Part shown: positions 4,585 to 29,907 of the stretch, piece after piece
How positions within the stretch are numbered: position 1 is the first letter of the stretch
How the letters are laid out: each line of letters opens with the position of its first letter
NCBI GenBank assembly: GCA_030592355.1
Contig: JAUVJE010000002.1
Coordinates: 1-34,746 of the forward strand
Direction: 5' to 3'
Length of the DNA: 34,746 nucleotides
Origin: Clostridia bacterium
GTDB lineage: Bacteria > Bacillota > Clostridia > DUPQ01
Notes under the pieces: model-generated
Seen by the model: only the letters and a program-made list of their open reading frames with translations
What the model was told of the DNA's origin: nothing
The model's database searches: none
Program-made: the position numbers and the translations under genes

Positions 4585-4590
4585 ACATTG

Positions 4591-4644: not shown

Positions 4645-4680
4645 TATTTGCTGTTTGTCCCTGGGGACAAACAGCAAATA
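4645..4680. repeat. Perfect 17-bp inverted repeat (36-nt palindrome), candidate operator
   Basis: TATTTGCTGTTTGTCCC tg GGGACAAACAGCAAATA. No U-tract follows. It lies between the terminator at 4591 and the ATG at 4711. Confidence 0.8.
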
Positions 4681-4710
4681 AGGCAAATAGTATTTGAAAG
4701 AAGGGTTGAA

Positions 4711-12891: not shown

Positions 12892-12920
12892 CATCCATAC
12901 ATCCCAAGGATGTATGGATG
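12892..12920. repeat. Palindromic element copy A (13-bp stem, CAA loop)
   Basis: CATCCATACATCC caa GGATGTATGGATG. It is near-identical to the core of the hairpin at 32461-32501 and has only a weak T-tract (TTTG). Confidence 0.8.
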
Positions 12921-12990: not shown

Positions 12991-13019
12991 TTGAAACAAA
13001 CGTAGAAAAATTATATAAT
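12991..13019 (+). promoter_or_regulatory. Putative sigma-A promoter of the purine-catabolism operon
   Basis: TTGAAA (12991-12996), 17-nt spacer, consensus TATAAT (13014-13019), ~47 nt upstream of the ATG at 13067. Confidence 0.5.
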
Positions 13020-13066: not shown

Positions 13067-13651
13067 ATGAAACGTGATGCGGTCGTACTGGCGGCTGGAT
13101 TTTCGAGCCGTACAGACACTAATAAAATGACACTGGTAATAGAAAATAAAACAATTCTTGCGAGAGTTATTGAGACTCTTTCGTCTGTATGCGATGAAAT
13201 CGTGGTAGTGGGCGGACATAATTTTGATTCCATTAAGCAAATAACTGATGATTTCGACAGAGTAAAGCTGGTAAAAAACGAGGCATATCACCTTGGAATG
13301 TTCAGCTCTGTCATATGCGGAACAAGAGAAATGAAAAAAGATTTTTTCCTCATTCCCGGTGACTGCCCGGCCGTCAAAATAACAACGTATCAAAAGCTCT
13401 TAAAAAGCCGGGGGAATTTTATTGTGCCGGTATTTAATAAAAAAGGCGGTCATCCGGTGCTTATAAAAAAAGAATTGATTCCAAAGCTTCTTGACGAACC
13501 GGTTGAATCAAATCTTAAGGCCTTTAGAAATAAATGCAATCCCGAATTTGTTGAAGTAGATGACGAAGGAATCCTGCTGGATATAGATACTCCGGAGGAT
13601 TTTAACTATATAAAGGAAATTGTCGGGAGGAGGAGTCGCAGTGAAAATTGA
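13067..13651 (+). CDS. mocA: Molybdenum cofactor cytidylyltransferase (MobA/MocA-like nucleotidyltransferase)
   Basis: 194 aa. N-terminal AVVLAAGFSSR nucleotide-binding motif, IPGDCP, and the context next to Mo hydroxylases. Confidence 0.7.
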   Translation: MKRDAVVLAAGFSSRTDTNKMTLVIENKTILARVIETLSSVCDEIVVVGGHNFDSIKQITDDFDRVKLVKNEAYHLGMFSSVICGTREMKKDFFLIPGDCPAVKITTYQKLLKSRGNFIVPVFNKKGGHPVLIKKELIPKLLDEPVESNLKAFRNKCNPEFVEVDDEGILLDIDTPEDFNYIKEIVGRRSRSEN

Positions 13652-14435
13652 TTCATATCGAAGGGTTGGATCCATAGAAGAAGCTTATGAGCTGCTGACG
13701 GAAAAATCCGGTGCAGCGATTATCGGCGGAGGAGCATGGCTGAAACTTATGCCAAAGACAATAGATACTGCAATAGATTTGTCAGATTTGGGGTTGGATA
13801 AAGTAACCGGGTTAGAAAATGAATATGAAATTGGTTGTATGGTAAAACTCAGACAGCTTGAAAAATTCACTCCGTTCCAAATGATATTCGACGGCATCCT
13901 GATTCAAAGCGCAGGGTCAATCATGGGTGTTACTGTGAGGAATATCGCGACGGCCGGGGGCACTGTTGCGGGCAAATACGGATTTTCGGATTTGCTGCCC
14001 GTTCTTTTAGCCATGGATGCGGAAGTAGAATTATATAAAAGAGGCAGATTGAAACTTGAACAGTTTATGGATGAAACCGGTGTTTTAAAGGACATACTTA
14101 CTCGTATATATATTAGAAAAACCGAGGGACGCGGATGGTTTTATACGATGAAAAATACAGCTATCGATTTTCCTATCCTTAACGCCGCAATTACTTCTTC
14201 GCAAAAGGGATGCAGGATTGTAATAGGCGCCAGACCCTACAAGGCTGCATTGGCAAAAAAAGCGATGCAATTTATCGACAGAATTGAAAAACCGGGGGAA
14301 GTAGAAATAATTGAGGCCGCTAACATTGCTGCCGGCGAACTGAAATTTGGCAGCAACCAAAGAGGGTCTTCGGACTACAGGAGAGAACTTTGCATCACAT
14401 TTGTTAAGCGGGGGCTCAGGAAGGTGCTGTTATGA
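13641..14435 (+). CDS. Mo-hydroxylase set 1, FAD-binding (medium) subunit
   Basis: GTG start at 13641 behind GGAGGAGG. AAIIGGGAWL FAD_binding_5-type motif. CoxM/XdhB-like size (264 aa). Confidence 0.75.
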   Translation: MKIDSYRRVGSIEEAYELLTEKSGAAIIGGGAWLKLMPKTIDTAIDLSDLGLDKVTGLENEYEIGCMVKLRQLEKFTPFQMIFDGILIQSAGSIMGVTVRNIATAGGTVAGKYGFSDLLPVLLAMDAEVELYKRGRLKLEQFMDETGVLKDILTRIYIRKTEGRGWFYTMKNTAIDFPILNAAITSSQKGCRIVIGARPYKAALAKKAMQFIDRIEKPGEVEIIEAANIAAGELKFGSNQRGSSDYRRELCITFVKRGLRKVLL

Positions 14436-14881
14436 AAATTAAAATTAAAATAAACGGAACCATAAAAACAATTAACGTGAAAGCTGATGAATACCTTGTG
14501 GATACTCTGAGAAACAATGGGTGTGTTAGTGTGAGAAGAGGATGCGACACCACCTCATGCGGGATTTGCACGGTACTTCTTGACGGAGCGCCGGTGGCCT
14601 CATGCAGCTATCTTTCATGCAGGGCTGACAGTCATGAGGTGACGACCGTTGAAGGTATTCAGGAAGAAGCTGCACTAATAGCAGATTTCTTCGGGCATGA
14701 AGGAGCTGACCAATGCGGATATTGCAATCCATCCATGGCACTCACATTGTATGCGATGAAACGGGAACTTAAAAATCCTGATGATGATGAAATACGCGCC
14801 TACCTGGTAGGCAATCTTTGCAGATGCTCGGGATATGTCGCCCAGCACAGGGCAATCAGGGCTTATCTGGAGGTGGAATAA
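14432..14881 (+). CDS. Mo-hydroxylase set 1, [2Fe-2S] (small) subunit
   Basis: 149 aa. Both Cys clusters are present (CDTTSCGICTV...C and CGYCNP...CRCSGY). ATGA overlap with the FAD subunit. Confidence 0.85.
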   Translation: MKIKIKINGTIKTINVKADEYLVDTLRNNGCVSVRRGCDTTSCGICTVLLDGAPVASCSYLSCRADSHEVTTVEGIQEEAALIADFFGHEGADQCGYCNPSMALTLYAMKRELKNPDDDEIRAYLVGNLCRCSGYVAQHRAIRAYLEVE

Positions 14882-17193
14882 TGAAATATGTAAATAAAAC
14901 CATACCGTCCGTTGACGGAAAAGGTCTTATGATGGGCAAACCCGGTTATACAGATGACCTTGCGGAACCCAATTCATTGATCGTAAGAGTTCTCAGAAGT
15001 CCGCATCCTTTTGCAAAAATCATAAAAATAAATAAAGAAAAAGCATTGACGCTTGAAGGGGTCGAATGTGTTCTTACACATAAGGATTTTAAAAGAATTG
15101 CCGTAACCAGGGCGGGACAGGGATATCCGGAACCCTCGCCTCATGATAAGTTTATATTGGACGACCATGTACGCCATATAGGAGACGAAGTAGCTGCCGT
15201 AGCGGCATGTGATAAGGAAACCGCGAAAAAAGCCCTGGAACTTATTGATGTTGAATACGAAGTTCTGGAACCGGTGCTTGATTTCGAAAAAGCGTATGAA
15301 AACAAAAATGTAATACACAGCGAACCGGAAATACACGAGATGTTTCCTATAGGCCTTGAGCCTCTTAAAAATGTAGCAGCATCATATATGATGAATGTGG
15401 GTGATGTGGATAAGACCCTTGAGGAATGTGATGTTATATTGGACACCCGGTTCTACACACAGGCTCAGGCCCATGTGATGATGGAACCTCATACCGCTAA
15501 TGCAAGAATCGACTATCAGGGAAGACTGGTGATGTATTCATCTACGCAAACCCCTATACATGTAAGAAGAATACTCTCCCATGCACTGGAATATCCGCTT
15601 AGTAAAATTCGTGTAATTAAACCGAGAATCGGAGGGGGATACGGAGGCAAACAATGTCTTCACGGCGAATTTTTAGTAGCTGCTGTCACTCTGAGAACCG
15701 GGAAACCTTCAAAAATAGTTTATACACGAAAGGAAGTTTTTGAATCCACATTTTCACGGCACCCAATGCGTTTTGATATAAAATTAGGGGCAATGAACGA
15801 CGGTACGCTAAAAGGCATAGATGTGGATGTTCTTTCTGACACAGGCGCTTACGGCGAACATGCCCTTACCGTATTTATGGTCGCCGGTTCAAAAGTATTC
15901 CCTTTGTATAATAAAGTGGATTCAGTTCGTTTCGGAGGGAAAGTTGTTTATACAAATCACACACCTGCAGGGGCTTTCAGAGGGTATGGAGCCATTCAGG
16001 GCAATTATGCATTAGAATCCGCAATTGATATGCTCTGCGATAAGATGAATATCGACCCCGTGGAATTCCGGATGAAAAATATGATAAAGGAAGGGGAGAC
16101 ATCGCCGATATTTGCGATAATGGGAGAGGGCACTGAAGGCACTGCGATGAACATGGAATCCTGCAAACTGGATTATTGCGTAAAAAGAGGTCTTGAAATT
16201 ATAAATTGGAAAGACAAATATCCTAAAAAGACAACTGAAGATGGAAAAGTAAGGGGAGTGGGAATGGCCATAGCAATGCAGGGCTCGGGGATACCGTATA
16301 TTGATATGGGCTCGGCCATGATAAAATTAAACGATGACGGGTTTTTCAATCTGATGGTAGGAGCCACGGAACTTGGACAGGGCAGCGATACGATTCTTGG
16401 ACAAATTGCCGCGGAAAGCCTTGGTGTCAATCCCGATAAAATAGTTATTTATTCATCTGACTCAGACTTGACCCCATTTGATACCGGTGCTTATGCCTCA
16501 AGTACTACTTATGTGTCCGGCAATGCCGTAAAACTTACCGCTGACAGGATGAAAGAAATGATTATAGAAGAAGGAGCGAAAGCGTTGGGAACACGTTTAG
16601 CTGAAACTGATTTTGATGGTAAAATAATTAAATCAGGCGATAAAGAAATGACCCTTGCAGAATTATCAAACCGTCTTTATTACAATGAAGATCAGAAACA
16701 ACTGATGGCCTGCGAGTCTTATGTAGGCACAAAATCCCCACCGCCGTTTATGGCAGGTTTTGCAGAGGTAGAGATTGATCCTGAAACAGGTAAAGTTGAT
16801 ATTGTTGATTACGCTGCAGTTGTGGATTGCGGGACTACAATTAACCCAGCCCTTGCCAGGGTACAGGTGGAAGGCGGATTGGTACAGGGCATCGGCATGA
16901 CTATGTACGAGGATGTGGTGTATACGTCAAATGGAGGCATGGTTACAAATAACATGATGAACTATCGTATTCCCACAAGAAAAGAAATAACTGATATGCA
17001 TGTGGAATTCGCCGACAGTTTTGAACCGTCGGGACCATATGGAGCAAAGTCGGTGGGTGAAATCGGGATAGATACACCGCCGGCAGCTATTACAAATGCA
17101 ATTTACAACGCAGTTGGAGTAAGAATCCAGGAACTTCCGGTAACGCCGGAAAAAGTGTTTATGGGAATATTGAAGCAAAAGGATAAGGAGTAA
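14881..17193 (+). CDS. Mo-hydroxylase set 1, molybdopterin-binding (large) subunit, xanthine dehydrogenase family
   Basis: Start at the ATG at 14881 (1-nt overlap with the upstream TAA). 770 aa. Motifs RIGGGYGGKQ, AGAFRGYGAIQ and GAKSVGEIG. Confidence 0.85.
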   Translation: MKYVNKTIPSVDGKGLMMGKPGYTDDLAEPNSLIVRVLRSPHPFAKIIKINKEKALTLEGVECVLTHKDFKRIAVTRAGQGYPEPSPHDKFILDDHVRHIGDEVAAVAACDKETAKKALELIDVEYEVLEPVLDFEKAYENKNVIHSEPEIHEMFPIGLEPLKNVAASYMMNVGDVDKTLEECDVILDTRFYTQAQAHVMMEPHTANARIDYQGRLVMYSSTQTPIHVRRILSHALEYPLSKIRVIKPRIGGGYGGKQCLHGEFLVAAVTLRTGKPSKIVYTRKEVFESTFSRHPMRFDIKLGAMNDGTLKGIDVDVLSDTGAYGEHALTVFMVAGSKVFPLYNKVDSVRFGGKVVYTNHTPAGAFRGYGAIQGNYALESAIDMLCDKMNIDPVEFRMKNMIKEGETSPIFAIMGEGTEGTAMNMESCKLDYCVKRGLEIINWKDKYPKKTTEDGKVRGVGMAIAMQGSGIPYIDMGSAMIKLNDDGFFNLMVGATELGQGSDTILGQIAAESLGVNPDKIVIYSSDSDLTPFDTGAYASSTTYVSGNAVKLTADRMKEMIIEEGAKALGTRLAETDFDGKIIKSGDKEMTLAELSNRLYYNEDQKQLMACESYVGTKSPPPFMAGFAEVEIDPETGKVDIVDYAAVVDCGTTINPALARVQVEGGLVQGIGMTMYEDVVYTSNGGMVTNNMMNYRIPTRKEITDMHVEFADSFEPSGPYGAKSVGEIGIDTPPAAITNAIYNAVGVRIQELPVTPEKVFMGILKQKDKE

Positions 17194-17197
17194 AAAA

Positions 17198-17824
17198 ATG
17201 GACAGAAAGAAAATATTAAAACTAGTTTCGCAAATTATATTTTTCGGAGCTTTATGGGGAATTACAGAAGCCACGCTTGGATATTTATTGCATTTCCTTC
17301 CACCAACAGTTGCGGGGATAATCATGTTTCCCATAGCGGCATTCATTCTTATTAAATCATATAAAGCGACAGGATCAAGAGCCGCGCTGATTTATATTGG
17401 TTTCGTAGCGGCAGGAATAAAAGCAGTTGACTTTTTACTACCGGGAATGATTGTATTCAAAACTATAAATCCTATGATTTCAATAGTCCTTGAAGCGCTG
17501 GTAGTTGCCGCTGCCTATCCGATGCTGAGCAATTTAAAAGCAGGATGGAAACTTTCAGGCGGTATTGCGGCAAGTGTGGGATGGCGTACGGGTTACATAA
17601 TATATATGGTCATTCAATATTTTATTACAGGGTTTGTATCAAGCTATATCTCAACACCGTTTTTCACAATTAATTTTATGCTGTTGAATGGTGTTCTAAG
17701 TGGAGTCCTGCTATTTGGAATGTTGATGCTGGAATCAAAAGTAAAGCTTAAAGCAATGAAATTCAGACCTGTTTATGCCCTTGCAGCGCTGGTGCTGGCC
17801 ATGGGCCTGCAACTGGTTATTTAA
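17198..17824 (+). CDS. Integral membrane protein, ~6-7 TM, unknown function
   Basis: 208 aa, almost entirely hydrophobic segments. AAGGAG RBS. Starts 5 nt after the Mo-subunit stop. No family motif recognised. Confidence 0.6.
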   Translation: MDRKKILKLVSQIIFFGALWGITEATLGYLLHFLPPTVAGIIMFPIAAFILIKSYKATGSRAALIYIGFVAAGIKAVDFLLPGMIVFKTINPMISIVLEALVVAAAYPMLSNLKAGWKLSGGIAASVGWRTGYIIYMVIQYFITGFVSSYISTPFFTINFMLLNGVLSGVLLFGMLMLESKVKLKAMKFRPVYALAALVLAMGLQLVI

Positions 17825-17830
17825 ATAAGC

Positions 17831-17856
17831 AAAAATTGTCCCTTTGGACAATTTTT
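17831..17856 (+). terminator. Hairpin after the membrane-protein gene (weak terminator or processing site)
   Basis: AAAAATTGTCC cttt GGACAATTTTT. The A5/T5 tracts form the base of the stem. An alternative pairing exists between TTGTCCC (17836-42) and GGGACAA (17858-64). Confidence 0.45.
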
Positions 17857-17885
17857 GGGGACAAATTTGTACTTGAGGAATATAA

Positions 17886-18707
17886 ATGAATATTTATAGT
17901 GAAATAAGCAAGCATATGGATTCGGGAACCGCATGTATATTAGCGACTGTAGTGGGAAAAAGCGGTGAAGGACCTGTAGAAGTCGGCAAGAAAATGATTG
18001 TGGGCTCAGACGGTATTGCGAAAGGAACGGTAGGCGGCGGTGCTCTTGAATTCTACGCCCGCGAACGCTGTAAAGAACTATTGGCAGACCGTAAAAATTT
18101 GCTGGAAAAATACTTGTTGAACGAAGGCGAAGTTATAAAAGATGCAAAGACTTTGCCTATGGTATGCGGTGGGGAGGTTTCAATTTTCTATGAGTATATC
18201 GGGCCGGATGCCTGCATATACATTTTCGGGGGAGGACACGTTGGACAGGCAACGGTTAATGTTTTAAAAACTATGAATTTCCACATAACCGTGATAGATG
18301 AAAGAAAAGCGGTTTATAATGCATTTAAAGGTGCAGACCGTAAGGTGAATATGTCTTTCACAGAGTTTATTGAGAGCGAAGGCATAGAGGAAGGAAGCTT
18401 TATCATAGTATGCACACCTTCGCATAAGCATGACTACAATGTGATTTATAAAGTCATTGAACTAGGACTTAAGCCCCAATATATCGGAATGTTGTGTTCA
18501 CCATCCAAATTAAATGATTTTTTGAGCAGGATTTACAAAAAATTCGGAAAGAATGCGGACCTTTCAAATCTCTATTCGCCGATTGGCCTTGATATAGGAG
18601 GAGGTTCCCCGGAGGAAATCGCCATATCTATAGTTTCAGAAATTCTGGTTGTAAACAATGGTAAAACCGGACATAAACACATGAGGGTCGGAGACTTCAA
18701 ATGGTAA
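17886..18707 (+). CDS. xdhC: XdhC/CoxI-family Mo-hydroxylase maturation protein
   Basis: 273 aa. N-terminal XdhC_CoxI pattern (ATVVGKSGEGPVEVGKKMIV...GTVGGGALE) and the Rossmann part IFGGGHVGQA. Confidence 0.8.
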   Translation: MNIYSEISKHMDSGTACILATVVGKSGEGPVEVGKKMIVGSDGIAKGTVGGGALEFYARERCKELLADRKNLLEKYLLNEGEVIKDAKTLPMVCGGEVSIFYEYIGPDACIYIFGGGHVGQATVNVLKTMNFHITVIDERKAVYNAFKGADRKVNMSFTEFIESEGIEEGSFIIVCTPSHKHDYNVIYKVIELGLKPQYIGMLCSPSKLNDFLSRIYKKFGKNADLSNLYSPIGLDIGGGSPEEIAISIVSEILVVNNGKTGHKHMRVGDFKW

Positions 18708-19189
18708 CGATTATAACCGGGCCGTTAAATTCAGGGAAAACCACCAGAGTGGTGGAAGAATATAGGAACGTGGCCAGGGGAGATGGTTTTGTTTCCTTAA
18801 AAAGAATGAACGGTAAAGTTGTCGAAGGTTTTGACCTGATGAGATTGTCTACCGGTGAAAAGAGACCTTTTATAAGGAGAATCGGCAGCGAACCTAAGAA
18901 CTGGGTGGAAAACTGCACGTTGGGACCTTATACATTTTCAGATGATGCCGTCGGGTGGGCTGCAATGCAGATTTCCGGATTTATAAGCAACGGTATTTCC
19001 CCTGTATATCTCGATGAAGTGGGCATCATGGAATTAGCCGGTAAATGTTTTTATAAGATTGTTAAAAAGATAGTAAACTCCGGCACGAACGCTTATATAT
19101 CGGTCAGAGACGAATCCCTTGAAGCCGTAATTGAAAAGCTTGAAATTGACGGAGCGAAAATAATCAAGATGGGAGACAGATATGCATGA
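18701..19189 (+). CDS. Small P-loop NTPase (THEP1/DUF2478-like), probable accessory protein
   Basis: 162 aa. Walker A GPLNSGKTT at residues 7-15 and Walker B-like VYLDEVG. 7-nt overlap with xdhC. Confidence 0.55.
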   Translation: MVTIITGPLNSGKTTRVVEEYRNVARGDGFVSLKRMNGKVVEGFDLMRLSTGEKRPFIRRIGSEPKNWVENCTLGPYTFSDDAVGWAAMQISGFISNGISPVYLDEVGIMELAGKCFYKIVKKIVNSGTNAYISVRDESLEAVIEKLEIDGAKIIKMGDRYA

Positions 19190-20477
19190 CCTTGGAATAA
19201 TTGGGGGACAACTGTATATCGAAAGCGAATTTCAAAGAAAGAATCTGTTTGTAAAAAACGGTGCGATTTCCGGTATATCCGACGGTGTTGAAGGCTGCTT
19301 GGAATACTATGATGCATCGGGTAAAAAAATTATCCCGGGACTAATTGATCCTCATGTGCACTTTGCTCTGAATGTAAGCGGCCGCACATCAGCGGACAAC
19401 TTTTTTTCAGGATCTGTCAGCGCCGCCTTTGGAGGAGTAACCACTTTCATCGATTTTTTGGATCCGGTTTCAAAAGCCTTGGATTTACCCGGTGCTTTAA
19501 AAAGGAGAAAAAGCGCTGCAAAAGACAGTGTTGTAAACTATCTTTTTCATGCTACTGCGGCAAATCCGAAGGGCGAAACCGAAAAAATAGCCATGGAGAT
19601 GAAAAACCTGGGACTTCATACTATAAAAATATTCACTACTTATGAAGAATCCGGAAGACGCACTTATGATACCGAAATAAAAGAGTTTCTTGAATTGTCA
19701 AAAAAATATGGATTCATGGTGCTTGCCCATGTGGAAAATGATGACATTGTAGGTATGCATCCGAAACAATTGGTCAGTAATCTTCCCGAAGCACGCAGCG
19801 AAGAAGCTGAAATTACAGAAGCCCTTAAACTGGCGGCAATGGTCCGGGAAACGGGTGGAGAACTATATATGGTTCATACCAGCAGCGGCCGCACAGTGAG
19901 GGAACTGATAAAATGTTTTTCGGGAATAGTCGGAAATAGGTTTCATATTGAAAGCTGTCCCCACTATTTTTCATTTGACGACAGTAAATATGAAAACGAA
20001 GACGGATACCTTTATACTATGATTCCTCCACTGCGAGATTCAAGGGCTGTAAGATTACTGAAAAAATATTCTAATTTTGTCGAAAGCATCGGAACGGATC
20101 ATTGTCCGTATATGGAAAATGAGAAAGCCAGGCAGTGGCTTGATGAAATTCCAATGGGAATTGGATCAATCGAGCACTCCTTTGTCGTAATGCACAGCAT
20201 TCTTGGTAATAAGGCAATAGATAAGATGAGCAGATGCCCGGCGGAAATTTTCGGGTTGTATCCGTGGAAAGGTTTGCTGGCAGTTGGCTCGGATGCTGAC
20301 ATAACGATATACGATGATAATGAAAATTATAGAATCCATGGAAACCATTCTGCGTGTGATTATACGGTTTATGAGGGATTTGACGTAAAAGTTAAAATTG
20401 AATCCACAATATGCGGCGGGGAATTTGTTATAAGAAAAGGTGAATTTAAAAGGGGGAACGGAAAATGTTTGCTCTGA
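19182..20477 (+). CDS. Cyclic amidohydrolase (hydantoinase/dihydropyrimidinase-like, HyuA-like)
   Basis: 431 aa. Metal-ligand set GLIDPHVHF, HTIKIFTTY (carbamylated-Lys position), LAHVEND, MVHTSS and GTDHCPY. Confidence 0.75.
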   Translation: MHDLGIIGGQLYIESEFQRKNLFVKNGAISGISDGVEGCLEYYDASGKKIIPGLIDPHVHFALNVSGRTSADNFFSGSVSAAFGGVTTFIDFLDPVSKALDLPGALKRRKSAAKDSVVNYLFHATAANPKGETEKIAMEMKNLGLHTIKIFTTYEESGRRTYDTEIKEFLELSKKYGFMVLAHVENDDIVGMHPKQLVSNLPEARSEEAEITEALKLAAMVRETGGELYMVHTSSGRTVRELIKCFSGIVGNRFHIESCPHYFSFDDSKYENEDGYLYTMIPPLRDSRAVRLLKKYSNFVESIGTDHCPYMENEKARQWLDEIPMGIGSIEHSFVVMHSILGNKAIDKMSRCPAEIFGLYPWKGLLAVGSDADITIYDDNENYRIHGNHSACDYTVYEGFDVKVKIESTICGGEFVIRKGEFKRGNGKCLL

Positions 20478-21742
20478 CAAATGTAAGAATTTTCGATTTG
20501 CAGAATTATTATGACAACGGATACATTATTTTTAATGAGAAAATAAAGGAAGTCGGCGACATGGCTGGCTTTAGGGACAATGGTTATGAAATTATAGATG
20601 GAACGGGACATCTTGCGATGCCGTCCCTGACAGTTGCTCATACTCACATATATTCAACATTCGCAAGGGGAATGGTTATTCCGTTCAATCCTGCGAATTT
20701 TCAGGAAATTCTGGAGCAGTTATGGTGGAAAATGGATTCACACCTTACCGGGGAAGATATATATATGAGTGGAATCGTCAGTGGAGTGGATTATGCGAAA
20801 AACGGTGTGACTACAGTTATTGATCATCACGCGGGCAAGAAGATTAAAGGGTCGTTGACGCTGCTTAAAAAAGCTGTTTGCGAAAAGGTCGGTTTAAGGG
20901 GTTCTTTTTGTTTCGAAACCAGCGACCGATTTGATGTAGACGCATGCATAAGTGAAAACAATAACAGCGCAGACATATTCGGGCTTCATGCATCTATGAC
21001 GCTATCTGACGACACTTTGATTAAAGTTAAGGATTCTTTAGGGGACAAACCGGTGCATATACATGCGGCTGAAAGCTGGATGGATCAGGAAAACTGCCTG
21101 TCTTATCACGGAGAACGGGTGATAGAAAGGTTGGACCGTCATGGTTTGCTTAATAAAAATTCCATACTGGCTCATTGCATTCATATAAATGAAGACGAGG
21201 CGGAAATCATTGAGAAGAACGGCTGTTGGGTAGCTTTGAATATTCAGTCGAATATGAATAATGCAGTCGGTTTGCCGGATTACAAAATGCTTAAAGAAAA
21301 GGGAATAAAATGTCTTATTGGCAACGACGGCATGTCAATGGGAATAACCGGTGAATGGATGTCCCTGTATCTTGCAATGAAACACAGATATTTATCCCAT
21401 ACTGCATTTGACATGTCGGATTTGCTCACGGTTATTGATAACAATAATAAATATGTAAACGAAACAATGGATATCAGTATCGGAAGGATTAAACCGGGAT
21501 ACGATGCAGATTTGCTGTCTATTGAATACGAACCGCCTACGCCCATAGGTAAAGACAATGCATTCGGTCATATTTTATTTGGTTTGAGCAGGGCGTTCAC
21601 ACCGGAACATGTATGGTGCAAAGGGAAGCATATTGTCAGACATTATCATGTAAGTGATGAGTTAGAGAAAAAATATAAAGAGGCGAAGAAGACTGCGGAA
21701 AAGCTTTGGGAAAGGATTAAGAGCGATAGTTATAATGGATAA
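20465..21742 (+). CDS. ssnA: SsnA-type aminohydrolase (amidohydrolase superfamily, chlorohydrolase/deaminase branch)
   Basis: 425 aa. Motifs HTHIYSTFARGM, VHIHAAES, AHCIH and GNDGMS. 13-nt overlap with the upstream gene. Confidence 0.7.
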   Translation: MFALTNVRIFDLQNYYDNGYIIFNEKIKEVGDMAGFRDNGYEIIDGTGHLAMPSLTVAHTHIYSTFARGMVIPFNPANFQEILEQLWWKMDSHLTGEDIYMSGIVSGVDYAKNGVTTVIDHHAGKKIKGSLTLLKKAVCEKVGLRGSFCFETSDRFDVDACISENNNSADIFGLHASMTLSDDTLIKVKDSLGDKPVHIHAAESWMDQENCLSYHGERVIERLDRHGLLNKNSILAHCIHINEDEAEIIEKNGCWVALNIQSNMNNAVGLPDYKMLKEKGIKCLIGNDGMSMGITGEWMSLYLAMKHRYLSHTAFDMSDLLTVIDNNNKYVNETMDISIGRIKPGYDADLLSIEYEPPTPIGKDNAFGHILFGLSRAFTPEHVWCKGKHIVRHYHVSDELEKKYKEAKKTAEKLWERIKSDSYNG

Positions 21743-22808
21743 TCTTAAAACAAAATTTGACGGGTTGGTTCTTTCTAATCCCCTGATGCCGGCATCGGGT
21801 CCATTAACAGGTGATTTTGAAGGTTTGCAATTCATCCGGGAACAGGGAGTAGGCGCGGTAGTAACGAAAACTATTTCTATAAAAGCTGCAAAAGTGCCGC
21901 GGCCATGCATATACGGGGGCAGGGATTATATACAGAACTCTGAACTGTGGTCCGAATACCCGATGGAGAAATGGACGAAAGAAATTCTTCCTCAGTTTAT
22001 GAAAATTAAAAAAGTTCCGTTGATTGTGAGTGCAGGATATTCAGCTGAAGACATGGAGGTGCTGATACCAGAATTGGATAAATTTGCTGATGCGTTTGAA
22101 ATTTCAACCCACTATGTGGGGAAAAATCTGGATGTCATAGCCAATACCGTAAAGACAATCAGAAAAAACACTGACAAGCCGGTATATATGAAAATAAGTC
22201 CCCACATACCCAATCCTGTGGAATTTGCAAAAGCAGTAAGGGACGCAGGTGCCACCGGTGTAGTAGCAATTAATTCTCTCGGACCAACCATGAATATTGA
22301 TATTGCATCCCGCACGGTGAACTATGGAGGAAAAAGCGGTTTTTCCTGGACATCGGGACCTGTTATTAAAAACCTTGCCCTTGCTATAGTTTATACAATT
22401 AAATCAGCACTGCCGGATTTCACTGTCATAGGAACAGGGGGAATACAAAACGCCGATGATATAATTGAGTTTTTGCTGGCCGGAGCAAACGGAGTCCAGA
22501 TGCTGTCCGGGGCTTTGCTGAAAGGCAAAAATCTTTATTCGGAAATAATAAAAGACCTACCGGGTGCTTTAGAAAAACATGGTTTTAACAGCATAGAACA
22601 GATAAGGAAGACAGAATTAAAAATAGAGTCGGGGTATATCCCGAAGGTTCCGACACTTATCGAGGATAAATGTACCCATTGCAGATTATGTGAAAAAATA
22701 TGCCCTTATTTTGCTATATATTACGATGGCATAATACGGTTTGACGGTGAAAAATGCTTTGGCTGCGATTTGTGTATATCAAAGTGTCCGGCCGGGGCTT
22801 TGAAATGA
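21735..22808 (+). CDS. Dihydroorotate/dihydropyrimidine dehydrogenase-like flavoprotein with C-terminal 2x[4Fe-4S] domain (PreA-like)
   Basis: 357 aa. DHOD-fold N-terminus (LSNPLMPASGPL, VVTKTIS, GTGGI) and a C-terminal CTHCRLCEKICP ... CFGCDLCISKCP. Confidence 0.7.
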   Translation: MDNLKTKFDGLVLSNPLMPASGPLTGDFEGLQFIREQGVGAVVTKTISIKAAKVPRPCIYGGRDYIQNSELWSEYPMEKWTKEILPQFMKIKKVPLIVSAGYSAEDMEVLIPELDKFADAFEISTHYVGKNLDVIANTVKTIRKNTDKPVYMKISPHIPNPVEFAKAVRDAGATGVVAINSLGPTMNIDIASRTVNYGGKSGFSWTSGPVIKNLALAIVYTIKSALPDFTVIGTGGIQNADDIIEFLLAGANGVQMLSGALLKGKNLYSEIIKDLPGALEKHGFNSIEQIRKTELKIESGYIPKVPTLIEDKCTHCRLCEKICPYFAIYYDGIIRFDGEKCFGCDLCISKCPAGALK

Positions 22809-22821
22809 GAGGAGCTTAAAG

Positions 22822-24912
22822 ATGTCCGGTATTAGTAAATCCATCCCGAAACAGGATACGGCGGAAAAAACTTCCGGCGAAGCTCTGTACATAGGCGATA
22901 TCAAAGTTGACGGCATGCTCCATGCCAAGACTCTTAGGTCGACAAAAACCAGGGCATTGATTAAGGAAATAAAACTTCCGGATCTTCCGGAGGGATATCA
23001 TATTGTAGATTACAGGGATATTCCGGGGGAAAATTACGTAAAAATTATTTTTGAAGATATGCCTGTATTTGCAGAAAAAACTGTAAATTATTATGGGGAG
23101 CCAATTCTTTTGGTTATCGGTTCTGATAAACAGCAAATACTGAAATTGATTGATGCTATTGAGGTAATATATGAACCGCTGGAACCTCGCTACAAGTATA
23201 CGAAAAGTGTAGTTCATTATGAATATGAAAAGGGCAATACAGACACTGCTTTCGCCAATGCCGTAAGGACAATCAACGGGGAGTACAAAACCGGATATCA
23301 GGAGCACATTTACTTAGAACCTCAGGGTGTTATAAGTTTGTATGATGAGAATAAAATAACAATATTGGGATCCATGCAGTGCCCGTATTATATAAAAAAC
23401 GCAGTTATGCAGGTTTTAAACGCTGATGAAGACGGTGTGCGAGTGCAACAGGCTACGACAGGGGGAGCCTTTGGAGGCAAAGAGGAATTCCCTTCTCTTA
23501 TAGCATGCCAGGCTGCAGTTGCTTCGGCAAAACTGAAAAAACCTGTAAGTCTTATATACGATCGTATGGAAGATATAGAAACAACCACAAAAAGACATCC
23601 GTCTCTCATTAAGTTTACCGCAGCCATCGGCCCAGATTTTACAGTTGACGGAATCAGAGCGCATGTCTCTCTTGACAGCGGTGCTTATATAGGGTTGTCC
23701 GGGGTAGTGCTGCAGAGGGCTATGATTGCCGCAAGCGGAGTATACACAATAAAAAATTTATCCGTTTCCGGGGATGTTTACGAAACCAATTCAGTGCCTA
23801 ACGGAGCCTTCCGTGGATTCGGTGCTCCGCAGATGTTCTTTGCCGTCGAAATGTTTATGGAACATATAGCAAAGGAACTAAAATATAGTCCACTTGAGTT
23901 CAAGTTGAATTATTTGGCAAAAACGGGCGATGCCACTTCAACGGGAGGACAGTTCAGGAATCCAATAATAATGCGGGATATGGTTCATAAAGCATGGGAA
24001 ATATCGGATTACCGGAGAAAAACCACGGAATTTTCGCAACTTGGTGTATATAAGGGAATCGGCATGTCATTATTTCTGCATGGGTGCGGATTTACGGGCA
24101 GCGGAGAACAGAAGCACATTAAGGCAGTTGTCAGACTTCGGAAAAATAAGGATGATACGGTAACAATTCTTGCGTCCAGCACAGACATGGGACAGGGCGC
24201 TGCCACCACACTAAGGAAAATAGCTGCCGGGATACTCGAATTGTCCGTTGAACAAATCATATACAATAAACCCGATACCGACCATGTGCCGGATTCCGGA
24301 CCAACGGTGGCATCGCGCACGATAATGATAGTGGGAGGGCTTATAGCCAGGGCGGCTGTGGACCTTAAAGAAAAGTGGAAACCCGGAGAAGAAATAATTG
24401 TGGAACAACGTTATAAACAACCGGAATTTATAAAATGGGATGAAGATAAATTGCGCGGCGATGCTTATCCCGCATACTCATGGGGAGTTGTCGTCAGCGA
24501 AGTGGAGGTAAATCCCGTCACATGGACAGTGGAGCTGAAAGGATTATGGTCTGTGTATGATATTGGTATAGCCATTGATGAAAGAATTGTCATAGGGCAA
24601 ATCGAGGGAGGGCTTCTTCAGGGAATAAGTTACGGCATGATGGAAGTTATGGAATGCAAAGAAGGTATTATTCAACAAAGAAATGTGACGGACTACATAA
24701 TACCAACCGCTGCCGATAGTATAAATATGCATACGGTTTTGATGGATAACTCATATCCTCTGGGACCGTATGGAGCAAAAGGCGCGGGAGAATTGCCATT
24801 GGTGGGCGGAGCGCCTGCAGTTGCCATGGCGATTGAAAACGCAATCGGGAAAAAAGTTACCAGAATACCGGTAACGCCGGAATATATAATGGAGCTGATG
24901 AAAAATGGCTGA
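22822..24912 (+). CDS. Mo-hydroxylase set 2, molybdopterin-binding (large) subunit, xanthine dehydrogenase family
   Basis: 696 aa. Motifs TTGGAFGGKEEF, NGAFRGFGAPQ and GAKGAGELP. GAGGAG RBS. Confidence 0.85.
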   Translation: MSGISKSIPKQDTAEKTSGEALYIGDIKVDGMLHAKTLRSTKTRALIKEIKLPDLPEGYHIVDYRDIPGENYVKIIFEDMPVFAEKTVNYYGEPILLVIGSDKQQILKLIDAIEVIYEPLEPRYKYTKSVVHYEYEKGNTDTAFANAVRTINGEYKTGYQEHIYLEPQGVISLYDENKITILGSMQCPYYIKNAVMQVLNADEDGVRVQQATTGGAFGGKEEFPSLIACQAAVASAKLKKPVSLIYDRMEDIETTTKRHPSLIKFTAAIGPDFTVDGIRAHVSLDSGAYIGLSGVVLQRAMIAASGVYTIKNLSVSGDVYETNSVPNGAFRGFGAPQMFFAVEMFMEHIAKELKYSPLEFKLNYLAKTGDATSTGGQFRNPIIMRDMVHKAWEISDYRRKTTEFSQLGVYKGIGMSLFLHGCGFTGSGEQKHIKAVVRLRKNKDDTVTILASSTDMGQGAATTLRKIAAGILELSVEQIIYNKPDTDHVPDSGPTVASRTIMIVGGLIARAAVDLKEKWKPGEEIIVEQRYKQPEFIKWDEDKLRGDAYPAYSWGVVVSEVEVNPVTWTVELKGLWSVYDIGIAIDERIVIGQIEGGLLQGISYGMMEVMECKEGIIQQRNVTDYIIPTAADSINMHTVLMDNSYPLGPYGAKGAGELPLVGGAPAVAMAIENAIGKKVTRIPVTPEYIMELMKNG

Positions 24913-25378
24913 AATCAAATTTGTATTAAACAATGAGAAAGTCCAAATTGACAGAGACCCGACAATGCGTCTCCTTGATGTGCTTCGTGATGATTTCGGG
25001 CTTATAGGAGTAAAAGAAGGTTGCGGCGAAGGAGAATGCGGTGCCTGCTCGGTACTCATCGACAGCGAAGTGGCAAGTTCCTGCATTGTGCCCCTTGGGA
25101 ATGTGTTCGACAAGAAAATTGTGACGATAGAAGGATTTAAAAAAACTGACAGATACAAGGTACTTCATGAGGCTTACGAGGAGGAGGGTGCAGTACAATG
25201 TGGATTCTGCATACCCGGAATGCTGCTGGCATCTGAGTCGCTTTTAAATAAAAATCCCCATCCTTCAGAGGATGAAATACGCGACGGATTGTCCGGGAAT
25301 CTTTGCAGATGCACAGGATACAACATGATTGTAAGGGCTGTACAAAGAGCCGCTGAAACAGGTGAGGGATTATGGTAA
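24905..25378 (+). CDS. Mo-hydroxylase set 2, [2Fe-2S] (small) subunit
   Basis: 157 aa. CGEGECGACSV...C and CGFCIPG...CRCTGY. 8-nt overlap with the large subunit. Confidence 0.85.
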   Translation: MAEIKFVLNNEKVQIDRDPTMRLLDVLRDDFGLIGVKEGCGEGECGACSVLIDSEVASSCIVPLGNVFDKKIVTIEGFKKTDRYKVLHEAYEEEGAVQCGFCIPGMLLASESLLNKNPHPSEDEIRDGLSGNLCRCTGYNMIVRAVQRAAETGEGLW

Positions 25379-26247
25379 AATCATATTTCCCCAAAACATA
25401 CCGGCAGGCACTTGAGATTCTTGCAAAAAGCAATCCTGCAATTATTGCAGGCGGCACGGATCTCATGGTAAAAAAACGCAGATGGTCCGGTTTATCCCCC
25501 GGATTTTCAGAAGATATGATTTTTATTTCACAACTCAGGGAATTAGATTACATCCGCAGGGAAAATGGGAAAATATACATCGGTGCAAATGTAACGCTGG
25601 AAAAATTGCTTCATGACAAAGACATACCGGAGATTCTTAAAAAAGCAGTGGCATCCATGGCATCTCCCGGTGTCAGGCATACCGCGACATTGGCCGGCAA
25701 TATAGCAAATGCATCACCGGCCGGAGATACGCTGCCTGTTCTATATATTTTAAATGCCCGGATAGTTATCGGAAGCCTTGAAAGAGAGAATGTAATTCAA
25801 ATCGAAGATTTCATACTCGGTCCGGGTTCTATTGATTTGCGAAGAAGTGAAATAATAAAGGAAATTATAATAGATGATACTGATTTTGATTTTATGATGT
25901 ATGAAAAAGTCGGCGGCAGGAAATCTGATGCTATTTCCAAGGTATCTTTTGCAGCTGCGGTATCTTCGGTATTTGATATGGTTACTGACATGAGGATAGC
26001 TATAGGGGCTGTGGCTCCGACCGTCGTACGGATAAGAGAATTTGAACTTCAGTTGATAGATACACCGGTAAATGAGATGGCGCAAATATCTGGTTTGGTG
26101 AAAGATTTATATAAACCATTGATAAAACCTATAAGCGATCAAAGATCCACAGCTGACTACCGGAAAATGTGTGTGTTGAATTTTATAGAAGAATTTCTTA
26201 ATAAAGCCGGAAAAAGAATAGGTAAGGAGAAAGATATTGATTGGTGA
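25372..26247 (+). CDS. Mo-hydroxylase set 2, FAD-binding (medium) subunit
   Basis: 291 aa. PAIIAGGTDLMV FAD_binding_5 motif and a C-terminal CO-dehydrogenase flavoprotein-like part (SDQRSTADYR). Confidence 0.8.
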   Translation: MVKSYFPKTYRQALEILAKSNPAIIAGGTDLMVKKRRWSGLSPGFSEDMIFISQLRELDYIRRENGKIYIGANVTLEKLLHDKDIPEILKKAVASMASPGVRHTATLAGNIANASPAGDTLPVLYILNARIVIGSLERENVIQIEDFILGPGSIDLRRSEIIKEIIIDDTDFDFMMYEKVGGRKSDAISKVSFAAAVSSVFDMVTDMRIAIGAVAPTVVRIREFELQLIDTPVNEMAQISGLVKDLYKPLIKPISDQRSTADYRKMCVLNFIEEFLNKAGKRIGKEKDIDW

Positions 26248-26773
26248 AAGAATCAGACACAGAAGAAATGAAATTAAAATGAGCATGAAAGTCCTTGCTG
26301 AAAAAACAGGACTTACATCAGGTTTTATAAGTCAGGTTGAACGCGAACTTGCCGAACCCTCCATAACCTCGCTTCGTAAAATTGCAGAAGCACTGGGAGT
26401 AGCGGTTTTTTATTTTTTTACTGAGAAGAAAAACACAGGAATTGTAGTTAGAAATAATAAAAGGCAAAGTAGAAACTTCCCAAAATCCCACCTTACCTAT
26501 GAATTGTTATCGCCGGACTTGAACAGACAGATGGAGATGTTCATGGCCTCTTTGGAACCCGGAGCCGAGACTTGCGACGAACCTCTTTCCCATAATGGGG
26601 AAGAAGTGACCCATGTGCTTGAAGGAACCATGTGGATTAAAATCGGGAAAGATGAATACACATTGGAAACAGGTGACACTATTTACTATTTTTCGAGTAT
26701 GCCTCACAAAATAGTAAATACCGGGAGTATCATGCTTCGTTTTATATCAACAATAACGCCCCCGGCGTTTTAA
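26237..26773 (+). CDS. XRE-family HTH + cupin domain transcriptional regulator
   Basis: 178 aa, TTG start behind AAGGAGA. HTH segment MKVLAEKTGLTSGFISQVERE. Cupin part HNGEEVTHVLEGTMWI...GDTIYYFSSMPHKIVN. Confidence 0.8.
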   Translation: MIGERIRHRRNEIKMSMKVLAEKTGLTSGFISQVERELAEPSITSLRKIAEALGVAVFYFFTEKKNTGIVVRNNKRQSRNFPKSHLTYELLSPDLNRQMEMFMASLEPGAETCDEPLSHNGEEVTHVLEGTMWIKIGKDEYTLETGDTIYYFSSMPHKIVNTGSIMLRFISTITPPAF

Positions 26774-26827: not shown

Positions 26828-28537
26828 ATGAATACTATGCAGCTGGCAAAAGTCGCACGAGGCGATAAAAAAGCAGATTTAGTTCTGAAAAATTGTACTA
26901 TTGTTAATGTTTTCAACCACAAGGTGGAGCACGGTGATATTGCAATTACCGACGGTATCATCGCCGGCATCGGGAAATATTCAGGGAGAAAGGAAATTGA
27001 CCTTGAAGGCGGATTTGTCTGCCCCGGATTTATAGACGGCCATGTGCATATTGAATCTTCTATGCTTACACCCCCGCAATTTGCAAAAACGGTTATTCCC
27101 AAGGGCACAACCACAGTAATAGCGGACCCCCATGAAATTGCAAACGTTTGCGGTATAGACGGTATTGAATTTATGCTTGACAGCAGCGAAAAGCTTCCTT
27201 TGGATGTATTTATTATGCTTCCTTCCTGCGTTCCGTCAACAGACTATGAAAATTCCGGCGCGGTTCTTTCCGCGGAGGACTTAGCTCCGTTAATGGACCA
27301 CGAGCGCGTTATTGGACTTGGAGAAATGATGAATTATCCCGGTGTAATCAATGGTATTAAGAAAATCCATGACAAGTTGAATATCGCCGGGGGACGGATG
27401 ATTGACGGACATGCTCCGGGAGTTACCGGTAAAGAACTGAACGCCTATGTTGCATCGGGTATAAAGACAGACCATGAATGCACGGCAGTAGACGAAATGG
27501 AAGAAAAACTGAGACGGGGAATGTATATTATTATCAGGGAAGGTTCTGCAACAAGAAACCTGGATACTCTGATTGCGGGTGTCAGCAAAGACAATCTGAG
27601 AAGAATGCTTTTTTGCACCGACGATAAACATCCCAAGAGTATAAAGAACGAAGGTCATATCAATTACAATGTTAAAAGAGCCGTAAGCCATGGGGTTGAC
27701 GCCATTGACGCGATTTTAATGGCAACACTGAATACCGCAGAATGCTACGGACTTCGGGACAGGGGCGCAATAGCACCTGGCTACATAGCAGATATTCTGG
27801 TTTTGGATAATCTTAAAAACTTTTCAGTTATGCAGGTTTTCAAAAAAGGAAAGCTGGTAGCTGCAAACGGAGAAGCAAAATTCGGAGCGCGTGCAGTGGC
27901 TGACCAACGTGTGTTAAATACAGTCGTACTCAATGACAATATGAAAATTAATCTTGATTTACACCTGAAATCGGATGTAGTTAAAGTAATCCAGATAATT
28001 GAAGACAATATAATAACTAAAAAAGTTATCAGAAAAGTAGATGTAGATGACGGATATTATAAAAACAATCCAAAGCTGGACATACTGAAACTGGCTGTTA
28101 TAGAAAGGCATAAGAAAACCGGTAATATCGGACTTGGCCTGGTAGAAGGCTACGGATTGAAAAATGGCGCAGTAGCCCTGACAATTGCCCATGACTCTCA
28201 CAATATTATAGTTGTCGGTGACAATGACAGGGATATGTTGGAAGCGGTCAGGGAATTACAGAAATGCGAGGGTGGAATAACCATATGCAGCGGCGGAAAG
28301 GTTATGGGAAGCCTGACTCTGGAGGTCGGTGGATTGATGACTGATTCATCAATTGAATCAGTGGAAGATAAAGTTGATGAGTTGGTGGGAATTGCGGAGA
28401 AAATGGGCATTAACAAAGGATTGGATCCATTTTTAACACTATCCTTCCTCTCGCTTCCAGTAATACCCGAACTTAAACTAACCGACCGAGGCCTTTTTGA
28501 CGTAACAACCTTCGGCTTTGTGGGCACGGAAGAGTAG
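26828..28537 (+). CDS. ade: Adenine deaminase
   Basis: 569 aa, the canonical length. PGFIDGHVHIESSML metal motif. GGAGGAAATAG RBS. Confidence 0.85.
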   Translation: MNTMQLAKVARGDKKADLVLKNCTIVNVFNHKVEHGDIAITDGIIAGIGKYSGRKEIDLEGGFVCPGFIDGHVHIESSMLTPPQFAKTVIPKGTTTVIADPHEIANVCGIDGIEFMLDSSEKLPLDVFIMLPSCVPSTDYENSGAVLSAEDLAPLMDHERVIGLGEMMNYPGVINGIKKIHDKLNIAGGRMIDGHAPGVTGKELNAYVASGIKTDHECTAVDEMEEKLRRGMYIIIREGSATRNLDTLIAGVSKDNLRRMLFCTDDKHPKSIKNEGHINYNVKRAVSHGVDAIDAILMATLNTAECYGLRDRGAIAPGYIADILVLDNLKNFSVMQVFKKGKLVAANGEAKFGARAVADQRVLNTVVLNDNMKINLDLHLKSDVVKVIQIIEDNIITKKVIRKVDVDDGYYKNNPKLDILKLAVIERHKKTGNIGLGLVEGYGLKNGAVALTIAHDSHNIIVVGDNDRDMLEAVRELQKCEGGITICSGGKVMGSLTLEVGGLMTDSSIESVEDKVDELVGIAEKMGINKGLDPFLTLSFLSLPVIPELKLTDRGLFDVTTFGFVGTEE

Positions 28538-28624: not shown

Positions 28625-28650
28625 TTATAAGTAAATTGAGGTCAGGGTAT

Positions 28651-29883: not shown

Positions 29884-29907
29884 CCCTTTAATACAGGAGG
29901 ACAAATA

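Follow-up and report, generated by a model that had tools for sequence, protein, structure and literature searches.

A clostridial gene cluster pairing a likely xanthine dehydrogenase with an unfused XdhD-type molybdenum enzyme in a predicted variant of the 2,8-dioxopurine pathway

Introduction

The anaerobic 2,8-dioxopurine, or reductive urate, pathway was defined by two papers of 2025 (10.1101/2025.05.19.654654; 10.1101/2025.04.24.650524), which described it in gut bacteria and reported a selenium requirement for its first enzyme. In Clostridium sporogenes, XdhAC converts urate to 2,8-dioxopurine in a selenium-dependent reaction that makes no use of NAD(P)H (Liu et al., 10.1101/2025.04.24.650524), and in Escherichia coli the same conversion is an NADH-dependent reduction by XdhD-YgfM (Li et al., 10.1101/2025.05.19.654654). 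Reduction of the ring by YgfK, or by the PydA-like UacX in C. difficile, comes next, later steps are carried out in turn by SsnA, HyuA, YgeW/YqeA, YgeY and YgeX, and a separate xanthine dehydrogenase feeds urate into the pathway from hypoxanthine and xanthine (both 2025 papers). Here we analyze a stretch of 34,746 nucleotides (hereafter, the window) of a Clostridia bacterium (GenBank assembly GCA_030592355.1, contig JAUVJE010000002.1), in which one tightly packed string of genes encodes two complete three-subunit molybdenum (Mo) hydroxylases, here termed Set 1 and Set 2. We consider it probable that Set 2 is a urate-making xanthine dehydrogenase and Set 1 an unfused XdhD-type urate 6-reductase, and that the two act in series.

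Loci of this kind have been noticed before. "Xanthine-degradation loci" with xanthine dehydrogenases, accessory genes and purine deaminases were described in Izemoplasmatales and Clostridium (Wasmund et al. 2021, PMC8289736, Extended Data Fig. 9). Both the kind of locus and the lineages probably coincide with those studied here. Genes related to xanthine dehydrogenase were found to be up-regulated in a cultured Izemoplasma (Zheng et al.). Both papers predate the 2,8-dioxopurine pathway, and in them the Mo enzymes are generic xanthine dehydrogenases, with no separate roles for the two.

Materials and Methods

The window is one contig of a metagenome-assembled genome (MAG) of 2.18 Mb in 239 contigs, 87% complete, and every gene discussed here lies on its + strand. 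Family calls are based on Pfam and NCBIfam profile scans of the open reading frames (ORFs) of the window. Pocket residues were read from a HMMER alignment to bovine xanthine oxidase (XO; 3SR6 chain C, where index + 570 gives the bovine numbering) and compared across 143 Mo subunits at columns Q767, E802, R880, R912, F914, F1009, T1010 and E1261. Reference Mo subunits were E. coli XdhA and XdhD together with 12 members each of TIGR03311 and NF043082, these 24 being drawn from a sample of 151 genomes of the phylum; a search of the same 151 genomes with the TIGR03313 profile (E <= 1e-180) gave no match, so that no fused XdhD from the phylum was available for the tree. Homologues of Set 2 were sampled at 80 named loci. 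The Mo-subunit tree was built with FastTree from 96 sequences, with Shimodaira-Hasegawa-like (SH-like) support, and was repeated after deletion of the loop columns described below. These analyses establish directly which genes are present, which clades the Mo subunits belong to, how residues correspond and how the enzymes are distributed among genomes.

Results and Discussion

Two Mo hydroxylases of different lineages

As the initial annotation had proposed, the window holds two three-subunit sets with permuted gene order, in which flavin adenine dinucleotide (FAD), iron-sulfur (FeS) and Mo subunits follow one another in Set 1 and Mo, FeS and FAD subunits in Set 2; coordinates, strand and the lengths of the Mo subunits (770 and 696 aa) were all recovered in the ORFs, as follows.

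13641-14435, + strand: Set 1 FAD subunit, 264 aa, YgfM-like in size and best match (PF00941, PF03450)
14432-14881, + strand: Set 1 2x[2Fe-2S] subunit, 149 aa (PF01799, PF00111)
14881-17193, + strand: Set 1 Mo subunit, 770 aa (P0001), unfused XdhD-type by phylogeny and alignment
16096-16155, + strand: XdhD-type insertion loop, residues 406-425 of the Set 1 Mo subunit, from the alignment with E. coli XdhD
22822-24912, + strand: Set 2 Mo subunit, 696 aa (P0002), aligned to bovine XO
24905-25378, + strand: Set 2 2x[2Fe-2S] subunit, 157 aa, eight Cys present
25372-26247, + strand: Set 2 FAD subunit, 291 aa, XdhB-like in size

The Set 1 FAD gene has a GTG start preceded by a ribosome-binding site (GGGAGGAGGAG), and the ATG of the Set 1 Mo gene overlaps the TAA of the FeS gene before it. 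The eight Cys ligands are complete in both FeS subunits and in Set 1 stand at residues 38, 43, 46, 58, 95, 98, 130 and 132. The sets had been called paralogous, a term that holds at the level of the superfamily and does not extend to any closer kinship, the Mo subunits being only 27% identical (FeS 34%, FAD 27%).

Pocket signatures, written in the order of the eight columns given above, and the state of the insertion loop that marks XdhD are as follows for the enzyme types compared.

Set 2-like (76 of 76): QERRFFTE, XdhD loop absent
TIGR03311: QERRF(V/L/I)-E, XdhD loop absent
XdhA / NF043082: QQxRYT(H/Y/W)E, XdhD loop absent
E. coli XdhD: QQNQYI-E, XdhD loop present
Set 1-like: QQ(V/I/N/A)RYI-E, XdhD loop present

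Set 1 thus differs from Set 2 at four of the eight positions (E802, R880, F914 and F1009) and has no residue aligned with T1010. Some genomes do encode several enzymes of xanthine dehydrogenase type, as would be expected if the two sets were redundant isoenzymes with the same substrate profile and differed, for example, in electron acceptor or regulation. Yet the low identity of the Mo subunits and their divergent pockets make this highly unlikely, and Clostridia, Izemoplasmatales and other lineages retain the two as a pair (39-91% identity per gene), which argues for two separate and necessary functions.

Set 1 and the XdhD clade

In the phylogeny the Mo subunit of Set 1 joins E. coli XdhD in a clade (support 0.997) separate from those of XdhA/NF043082, TIGR03311 and Set 2, and this clade reaches a support of 1.00 once the loop columns are deleted. 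XdhA with NF043082 and TIGR03311 with related fused enzymes form further clades (support 1.0 each), and the Set 2-like enzymes a clade of their own (0.984). The insertion loop comprises some 10 residues, among which E416 of Set 1 (...IMGEGTEG...) is aligned with E606 of E. coli XdhD; this Glu is present in 29 of 31 cluster-linked Set 1 homologues, whereas among the 143 Mo subunits compared the loop is absent from XdhA, NF043082, TIGR03311 and Set 2 enzymes. In 4-hydroxybenzoyl-CoA reductase it is shorter. Li et al. (10.1101/2025.05.19.654654) single out XdhD E606, in the active site, as orienting urate. The loop appears to be ancestral in the XdhD clade and to have been lost in nested subclades. 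Elsewhere in the pocket, Q258 of Set 1 falls in the column of bovine E802, V334 in that of R880, R367 in that of R912, Y369 in that of F914 and the catalytic E727 in that of E1261; with XdhD, therefore, Set 1 shares Gln at E802, Tyr at F914, Ile at F1009 and the lack of an Arg at R880. Its gene order is that of an unfused version of ygfM-xdhD, with the FAD gene directly upstream of FeS and Mo genes that are separate (14432-14881 and 14881-17193) and show no fusion of the kind found in XdhD. By BLAST, the FAD subunit scores 66 bits to YgfM and 41 to XdhB, and its best, if weak, NCBIfam match is TIGR03312 (70.8 bits, cut-off 241.5; YgfM has 259 aa). With 296.6 bits to TIGR03311 (cut-off 830), the Mo subunit lies outside the clade of that family (support 1.0). 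Set 1 is thus most likely an unfused urate 6-reductase of XdhD/YgfM type, and homology to XdhD supports the earlier suggestion that it acts at a ring position other than that attacked by Set 2.

Copies that bear the loop were found inside uricolytic clusters of genomes without a TIGR03311 enzyme (the window, G107 and G049). Relatives without it share 51-60% identity with Set 1 and form FAD-FeS-Mo triplets that stand alone, away from uricolytic clusters; several belong to genomes in which a TIGR03311 enzyme also occurs. A definition of Set 1-like enzymes by identity alone was dropped because homologues in that range include these triplets without the GEG loop. Stand-alone triplets of this type were seen at seven Bacillota loci, L144-L150 (genomes G004, G082, G133, G072, G046, G137 and G113). 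At least two Bacillota genomes with such triplets also carry TIGR03311 and NF043082 enzymes, and some triplets adjoin UacT-like permeases or YqeC; they may represent another purine or heterocycle hydroxylase.

Clostridium purinolyticum possesses a purine hydroxylase and a xanthine dehydrogenase, two Mo hydroxylases of different purine specificity. With such a precedent among purinolytic clostridia, both sets might be oxidative hydroxylases of different regiospecificity, or Set 1 might act on some other heterocycle, and 2,8-dioxopurine would then arise by hydroxylation instead of urate reduction. The stand-alone triplets that are related to Set 1 but lack the loop would fit this, as would the fact that the solved structure closest to Set 1 is 4-hydroxybenzoyl-CoA reductase and not a purine enzyme. 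We nonetheless find it unlikely, since Set 1 combines the XdhD loop with its cluster context, since XdhD, its nearest characterized relative, reduces urate to 2,8-dioxopurine, and since the genome has no third Mo enzyme for the urate reduction step.

Set 2 and its homologues

Aligned to bovine xanthine oxidoreductase with HMMER, Set 2 keeps the residue at all eight positions: Q186 (Q767), E221 (E802), R299 (R880), R331 (R912), F333 (F914), F424 (F1009), T425 (T1010) and E657 (E1261), and all eight are invariant in 76 of 76 Set 2 homologues. Bovine XO is also its best match in the PDB (E = 3e-58). Set 2 shares both the pocket and the three cofactor modules with the bovine enzyme and with the Rhodobacter capsulatus xanthine dehydrogenase (1FO4, 3SR6, 1JRO), from which it differs in being made of three separate subunits in the order Mo-FeS-FAD; the relationship to bovine XO is distant, with 162 bits for the first aligned stretch (residues 5-521) and a weaker C-terminal one. 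Scores of 315-318 bits against the xanthine dehydrogenase equivalogs pucD, XdhA and xdhB do not reach their cut-offs (780-850), nor does that of 313 bits against TIGR03311 (cut-off 830), and Set 2 lies outside the TIGR03311 clade. Homologues of Set 2 adjoin TIGR03311-like fused enzymes in the Clostridium estertheticum group, Pectinatus and others. In Veillonella magna a TIGR03311-like gene stands next to SsnA and a Set 2-like operon lies alone elsewhere, and in a Limiplasma genome without SsnA the sole Mo hydroxylase is a Set 2-like enzyme. In their distribution, the Set 2 homologues would therefore seem to behave like an independent xanthine dehydrogenase. A Veillonella strain has been reported to produce xanthine from urate, and a literature search for the sequence of the characterized V. 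atypica xanthine dehydrogenase yielded nothing usable. Homology, with eight of eight bovine positions, supports the earlier view of Set 2 as xanthine-type, and a xanthine dehydrogenase is what it most likely is, with xanthine and hypoxanthine as proposed substrates.

Clusters at loci L081, L084, L085 and L088 seemed at first sight to contain Set 2 only, which is merely apparent, as each of these genomes has a Set 1-type gene elsewhere: full-length and with the GEG loop kept for L081 and L085 (some 13 kb away in the L085 genome), fragmentary for L084 and L088. For L091, no Set 1-type gene was found in the 1.9-Mb MAG. At two loci, of Dethiosulfatibacter aminovorans and a related MAG (L080 and L083), an extra Set 1-related enzyme, with Tyr in place of the loop Glu, lies directly upstream of the Set 2 genes; with the GEG-loop copy that the related L081 and L085 genomes carry elsewhere, a purine region of this type would hold three Mo hydroxylases.

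The initial annotation made use of the residue that follows the GGK motif, and its reading of that residue as the substrate-contacting position proves correct, E221 of Set 2 being aligned to bovine E802 and Q258 of Set 1 standing in the same column. As a sufficient diagnostic, with Glu for xanthine-type enzymes and Gln for others, the residue fails: E. coli XdhA and NF043082 enzymes also carry Gln, and TIGR03311 enzymes have Glu together with Arg. The motifs quoted initially are all present, AFRG(Y/F)G in both sets included; what that motif holds, by alignment, is R912 and F914, so it was rejected as the site of the substrate arginine, R880, which only Set 2 retains (R299; V334 in Set 1). The GEG loop and the F1009/T1010 pair help to tell the enzyme types apart better than the residue after GGK.

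Assignment of roles

The MAG contains exactly two genes with the PF02738 domain, both in the cluster, and the same number is found in each of four relatives with the same cluster. If the pathway starts from purines, one of the two must make urate and the other 2,8-dioxopurine, and which does which is indicated by the tree, by the Glu loop specific to XdhD, by the residues at F1009/T1010 and by the distribution of the enzymes among genomes.

Several observations weigh against this assignment. None of the six subunits of the two sets attains an NCBIfam equivalog cut-off, for which reason naming them from these models was dropped, and for the Mo subunits this is a point against the proposed roles; Set 1 reaches 575.5 of the 1101.9 bits required by TIGR03313, a model that includes the fused N-terminal domain encoded by a separate gene in Set 1. 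Set 1 is nearly as close to NF043082/XdhA enzymes (37-40% identity) as to XdhD (36%), its FeS subunit is closer to XdhC than to the N-terminal domain of XdhD, and similarities among FAD subunits are weak, so that assigning partners by FAD- and FeS-subunit similarity was abandoned. The proposed role of E606 in orienting urate comes from the Boltz-1 model of Li et al. Moreover, C. sporogenes XdhAC is presumably of TIGR03311 type and XdhABC of NF043082 type, given their length, domain make-up (for XdhAC, FeS and Mo, with Mo domains at residues 307-839) and cluster context. Since TIGR03311 enzymes also carry E802 and R880, a pocket like that of XO would be compatible with urate 6-reduction. Finally, one genome (G115) carries TIGR03311, NF043082 and Set 2-like enzymes; together with V. 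magna, which has three types, it rules out a scheme in which the four enzyme types strictly substitute for one another.

These points leave some room for the converse assignment, in which Set 2 would be the urate 6-reductase, like the presumably TIGR03311-type XdhAC, and Set 1 an XdhA-like xanthine dehydrogenase. The QERRF..E signature of TIGR03311 does resemble that of Set 2, XdhA and NF043082 enzymes share with Set 1 both Gln at 802 and the lack of R880, hyuA-ssnA-uacX immediately precede the Set 2 Mo gene, and Set 1 scores 648 bits to NF043082 against 575 to TIGR03313. On the other hand, the tree places Set 1 with XdhD (0.997-1.00), the loop that it carries is missing from XdhA and NF043082, and Set 2 keeps F1009 and T1010, which are lacking in the TIGR03311 clade to which it does not belong. 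Its homologues, in addition, share clusters with TIGR03311-like enzymes and occur in genomes without SsnA. We thus hold exchanged roles to be decidedly unlikely, and what probability they keep stems from the NF043082 similarity, the failure to pass any equivalog cut-off, the weak FAD and FeS evidence, non-exclusive co-occurrence and the model-based status of E606.

The gene cluster and the proposed route

Between 13067 and 26773 neighboring genes overlap or lie 4-13 nt apart, the single exception being a gap of 61 nt, and this close packing, together with a terminator-like hairpin and a promoter-like site ahead of the first gene, makes it plausible that the string forms one operon. The remaining features of the cluster are listed below.

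12892-12920, + strand: terminator-like hairpin upstream of the first gene, likely operon boundary
12991-13019, + strand: promoter-like site, TTGAAA-17-TATAAT, the best sigma-70-like site of the region in a consensus scan
13067-13651, + strand: MocA-like molybdenum cofactor cytidylyltransferase (PF12804, 3e-29; TIGR03310, 131 bits, below cut-off), 30% identical to E. coli MocA
17198-17824, + strand: hydrophobic membrane protein, 208 aa, no family match
17886-18707, + strand: XdhC-family molybdenum cofactor (Moco) insertion chaperone, 273 aa (PF13478, PF02625; NF045664 and TIGR02964 below cut-off)
18701-19189, + strand: small P-loop nucleoside triphosphatase (NTPase; PF03266), not YqeC by profile scans
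19182-20477, + strand: HyuA-like cyclic amidohydrolase (hydantoinase; TIGR02033, 244 bits, below cut-off), 28% identical to E. coli HyuA
20465-21742, + strand: SsnA-family aminohydrolase, pathway marker (NF005540, 344 bits, and TIGR03314, 319 bits, both below cut-off)
21735-22808, + strand: UacX-type reductase, DHO_dh fold and 2x[4Fe-4S], in the place of YgfK (profile scan; description of Li et al.)
26237-26773, + strand: XRE-type helix-turn-helix (HTH) and cupin regulator (profile scans)
26828-28537, + strand: adenine deaminase, adenine to hypoxanthine (PF13382, 4e-64)
28636-29883, + strand: threonine-synthase-like pyridoxal phosphate (PLP) enzyme (NF006050, 295 bits)
29908-31275, + strand: CysK/SbnA-like PLP enzyme
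31268-32488, + strand: YgeY (716 bits; 72% identical to E. coli YgeY)
32539-33522, + strand: ornithine transcarbamylase (OTC)/YgeW-like carbamoyltransferase
33532-34479, + strand: carbamate kinase

SsnA, a UacX-type reductase, a HyuA-like protein, YgeY, a carbamoyltransferase and carbamate kinase are thus co-located with the Mo enzymes, and this gene content, which agrees with that of the clusters characterized by Liu et al. and Li et al., identifies the string as a variant of the known 2,8-dioxopurine cluster and not as a new kind of system. In typical Bacillota clusters a TIGR03311 gene lies among ygfK or uacX, ssnA, hyuA, ygeW, ygeY and a PLP gene, and an NF043082-type xdhABC adjoins the TIGR03311 gene.

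Substrates, reaction directions, electron carriers and selenium independence are what we infer for this cluster. The adenine deaminase next door would turn adenine into hypoxanthine and so supply Set 2, which would oxidize hypoxanthine and xanthine to urate; Set 1, working in the reductive direction, would strip urate of its 6-oxo group and so produce 2,8-dioxopurine. Overall, xanthine (2,6-dioxopurine) would be converted to its 2,8 isomer via urate. The UacX-type enzyme, the proposed 2,8-dioxopurine reductase, would then dearomatize this product, SsnA and HyuA would open the rings and the lower genes would yield carbamoyl phosphate/ATP and a C3 product. By analogy with XdhD-YgfM, electrons would be carried by NAD(H) through the FAD subunits. 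Of the route envisaged initially, the interconversion of xanthine, urate and another dioxopurine is borne out by homology, and the two successive hydroxylations give way to an oxidation followed by a reductive dehydroxylation.

If the roles are as proposed, enzymes of either XdhD or TIGR03311 type perform urate 6-reduction and those of either XdhA or Set 2 type oxidize xanthine, which suggests that the opening chemistry of the pathway is carried by interchangeable, unrelated Mo-hydroxylase lineages. E. coli XdhD-YgfM is the closest described counterpart of Set 1, with the same clade, loop Glu and pocket residues, an FAD gene directly upstream and linkage to ssnA, a hyuA-like gene, ygeY, mocA and a carbamate kinase gene. 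It is set apart by an identity of 36%, by the fusion of its FeS and Mo parts and by Gln in place of R912, which Set 1 retains; the E. coli cluster has YgfK where the window has UacX, and neither yqeB nor yqeC is present in the latter. None of the eight Cys ligands of the Set 1 FeS subunit is found in residues 1-189 of XdhD. C. sporogenes XdhAC resembles Set 1 in its proposed reaction and in the kind of cluster that harbors it, and differs in belonging, if of TIGR03311 type as presumed, to another clade (27-30% identity to either set), in its fused FeS-Mo chain, in having no FAD subunit, in making no use of NAD(P)H and in needing SelD; the TIGR03311-type pocket reads QERRF(V/L/I)..E and that of Set 1 QQVRYI..E. 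As for Set 2, its functional counterpart (xanthine to urate) would be XdhABC of the E. coli/NF043082 type, NF043082 being the presumed family of the gut-bacterial xanthine dehydrogenase knocked out in C. sporogenes by Liu et al. The XdhA/NF043082 enzymes are the sister clade of XdhD/Set 1 and share Gln802 and Tyr914 with Set 1, to which their identity is 35-40%, as against 24-27% to Set 2; they differ in gene order (Mo-FAD-FeS), in lacking the XdhD loop and in having Thr and an aromatic residue or His at F1009/T1010.

Distribution and selenium

A layout of 20 genes is repeated gene for gene in about 30 loci (39-91% identity per gene), carried by MAGs of uncultured Clostridia, Izemoplasmatales (including the complete NZ_CP168077), Petrocella sp. 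FN5 and Bacilli MAGs. In the MAG that contains the window, the best match to SelD (TIGR00476) scores 21 bits and YqeC (TIGR03172) has none; the XdhC-like gene of the cluster gives no match to TIGR03309 (YqeB), for which no genome-wide search of this MAG was made. SelD, YqeB and YqeC are likewise below cut-off in the closest MAG, in the complete genome of Izemoplasma sp. B36 and in Izimoplasma ZiA1, and of the three Petrocella has SelD only. Instead of them the cluster carries the XdhC-family chaperone, whose resemblance to E. coli YqeB is limited to the N-terminal half of the latter, and the P-loop NTPase. These absences, most telling for the complete genome, suggest a selenium-independent version of the pathway.

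On this basis we tentatively put forward, as a possibility short of an even chance, that the cluster represents a selenium-independent and fully flavin-wired form of the pathway, in which both Mo enzymes have FAD and intact 2x[2Fe-2S] subunits of their own and are matured by an XdhC-type chaperone in place of SelD/YqeB/YqeC. Xanthine dehydrogenase and urate 6-reductase might then form a redox-neutral couple that isomerizes xanthine to 2,8-dioxopurine and, starting from hypoxanthine, four electrons from the dehydrogenase could match the four used by urate reductase and UacX. Such a form might be the one used by DNA-degrading Izemoplasmatales and by uncultured Clostridia of sediments, rather than the gut clostridial form. 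A probably selenium-free version, widespread in environmental anaerobes that degrade extracellular DNA, would extend the ecological range of the pathway beyond animal guts and would be easier to transplant into a probiotic chassis.

Minor observations

In E. coli K-12 xdhD (L003:25317-25900, the first ~190 codons) all eight ligand positions are replaced, the corresponding Cys being conserved in XdhC, Set 1, Set 2 and one TIGR03311 member. With no Cys there, the N-terminal domain of XdhD probably binds no Fe-S cluster, which raises the matter of the path that electrons take from YgfM-FAD to Mo.

The 208-aa protein encoded directly after the Set 1 Mo gene, a position that it keeps in most related loci, is almost wholly hydrophobic and had no match in the Pfam/NCBIfam scan (17198-17824); it could be a transporter or a membrane anchor. 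No purine permease of NCS2 type was seen among the ORFs scanned. The only sizeable intergenic gap of the string, between the gene of this membrane protein and xdhC, contains a 12-bp hairpin with a T-rich 3' arm (17830-17857) that could be an attenuator or an RNA-stability element. DpaL (YgeX) was not found in the MAG, and its slot is occupied by the two other PLP enzymes (28636-31275), the CysK/SbnA-like one being 70-88% conserved across clusters, including gut-type ones, where it lies beside TIGR03311. Upstream of the purine cluster and unrelated to it, an AmmeMemoRadiSam trio (3697-6932) consists of a GFO/IDH/MocA-type oxidoreductase, a fused LigB-like (Memo) and AMMECR1 protein and a radical S-adenosylmethionine (SAM) enzyme encoded in a row.

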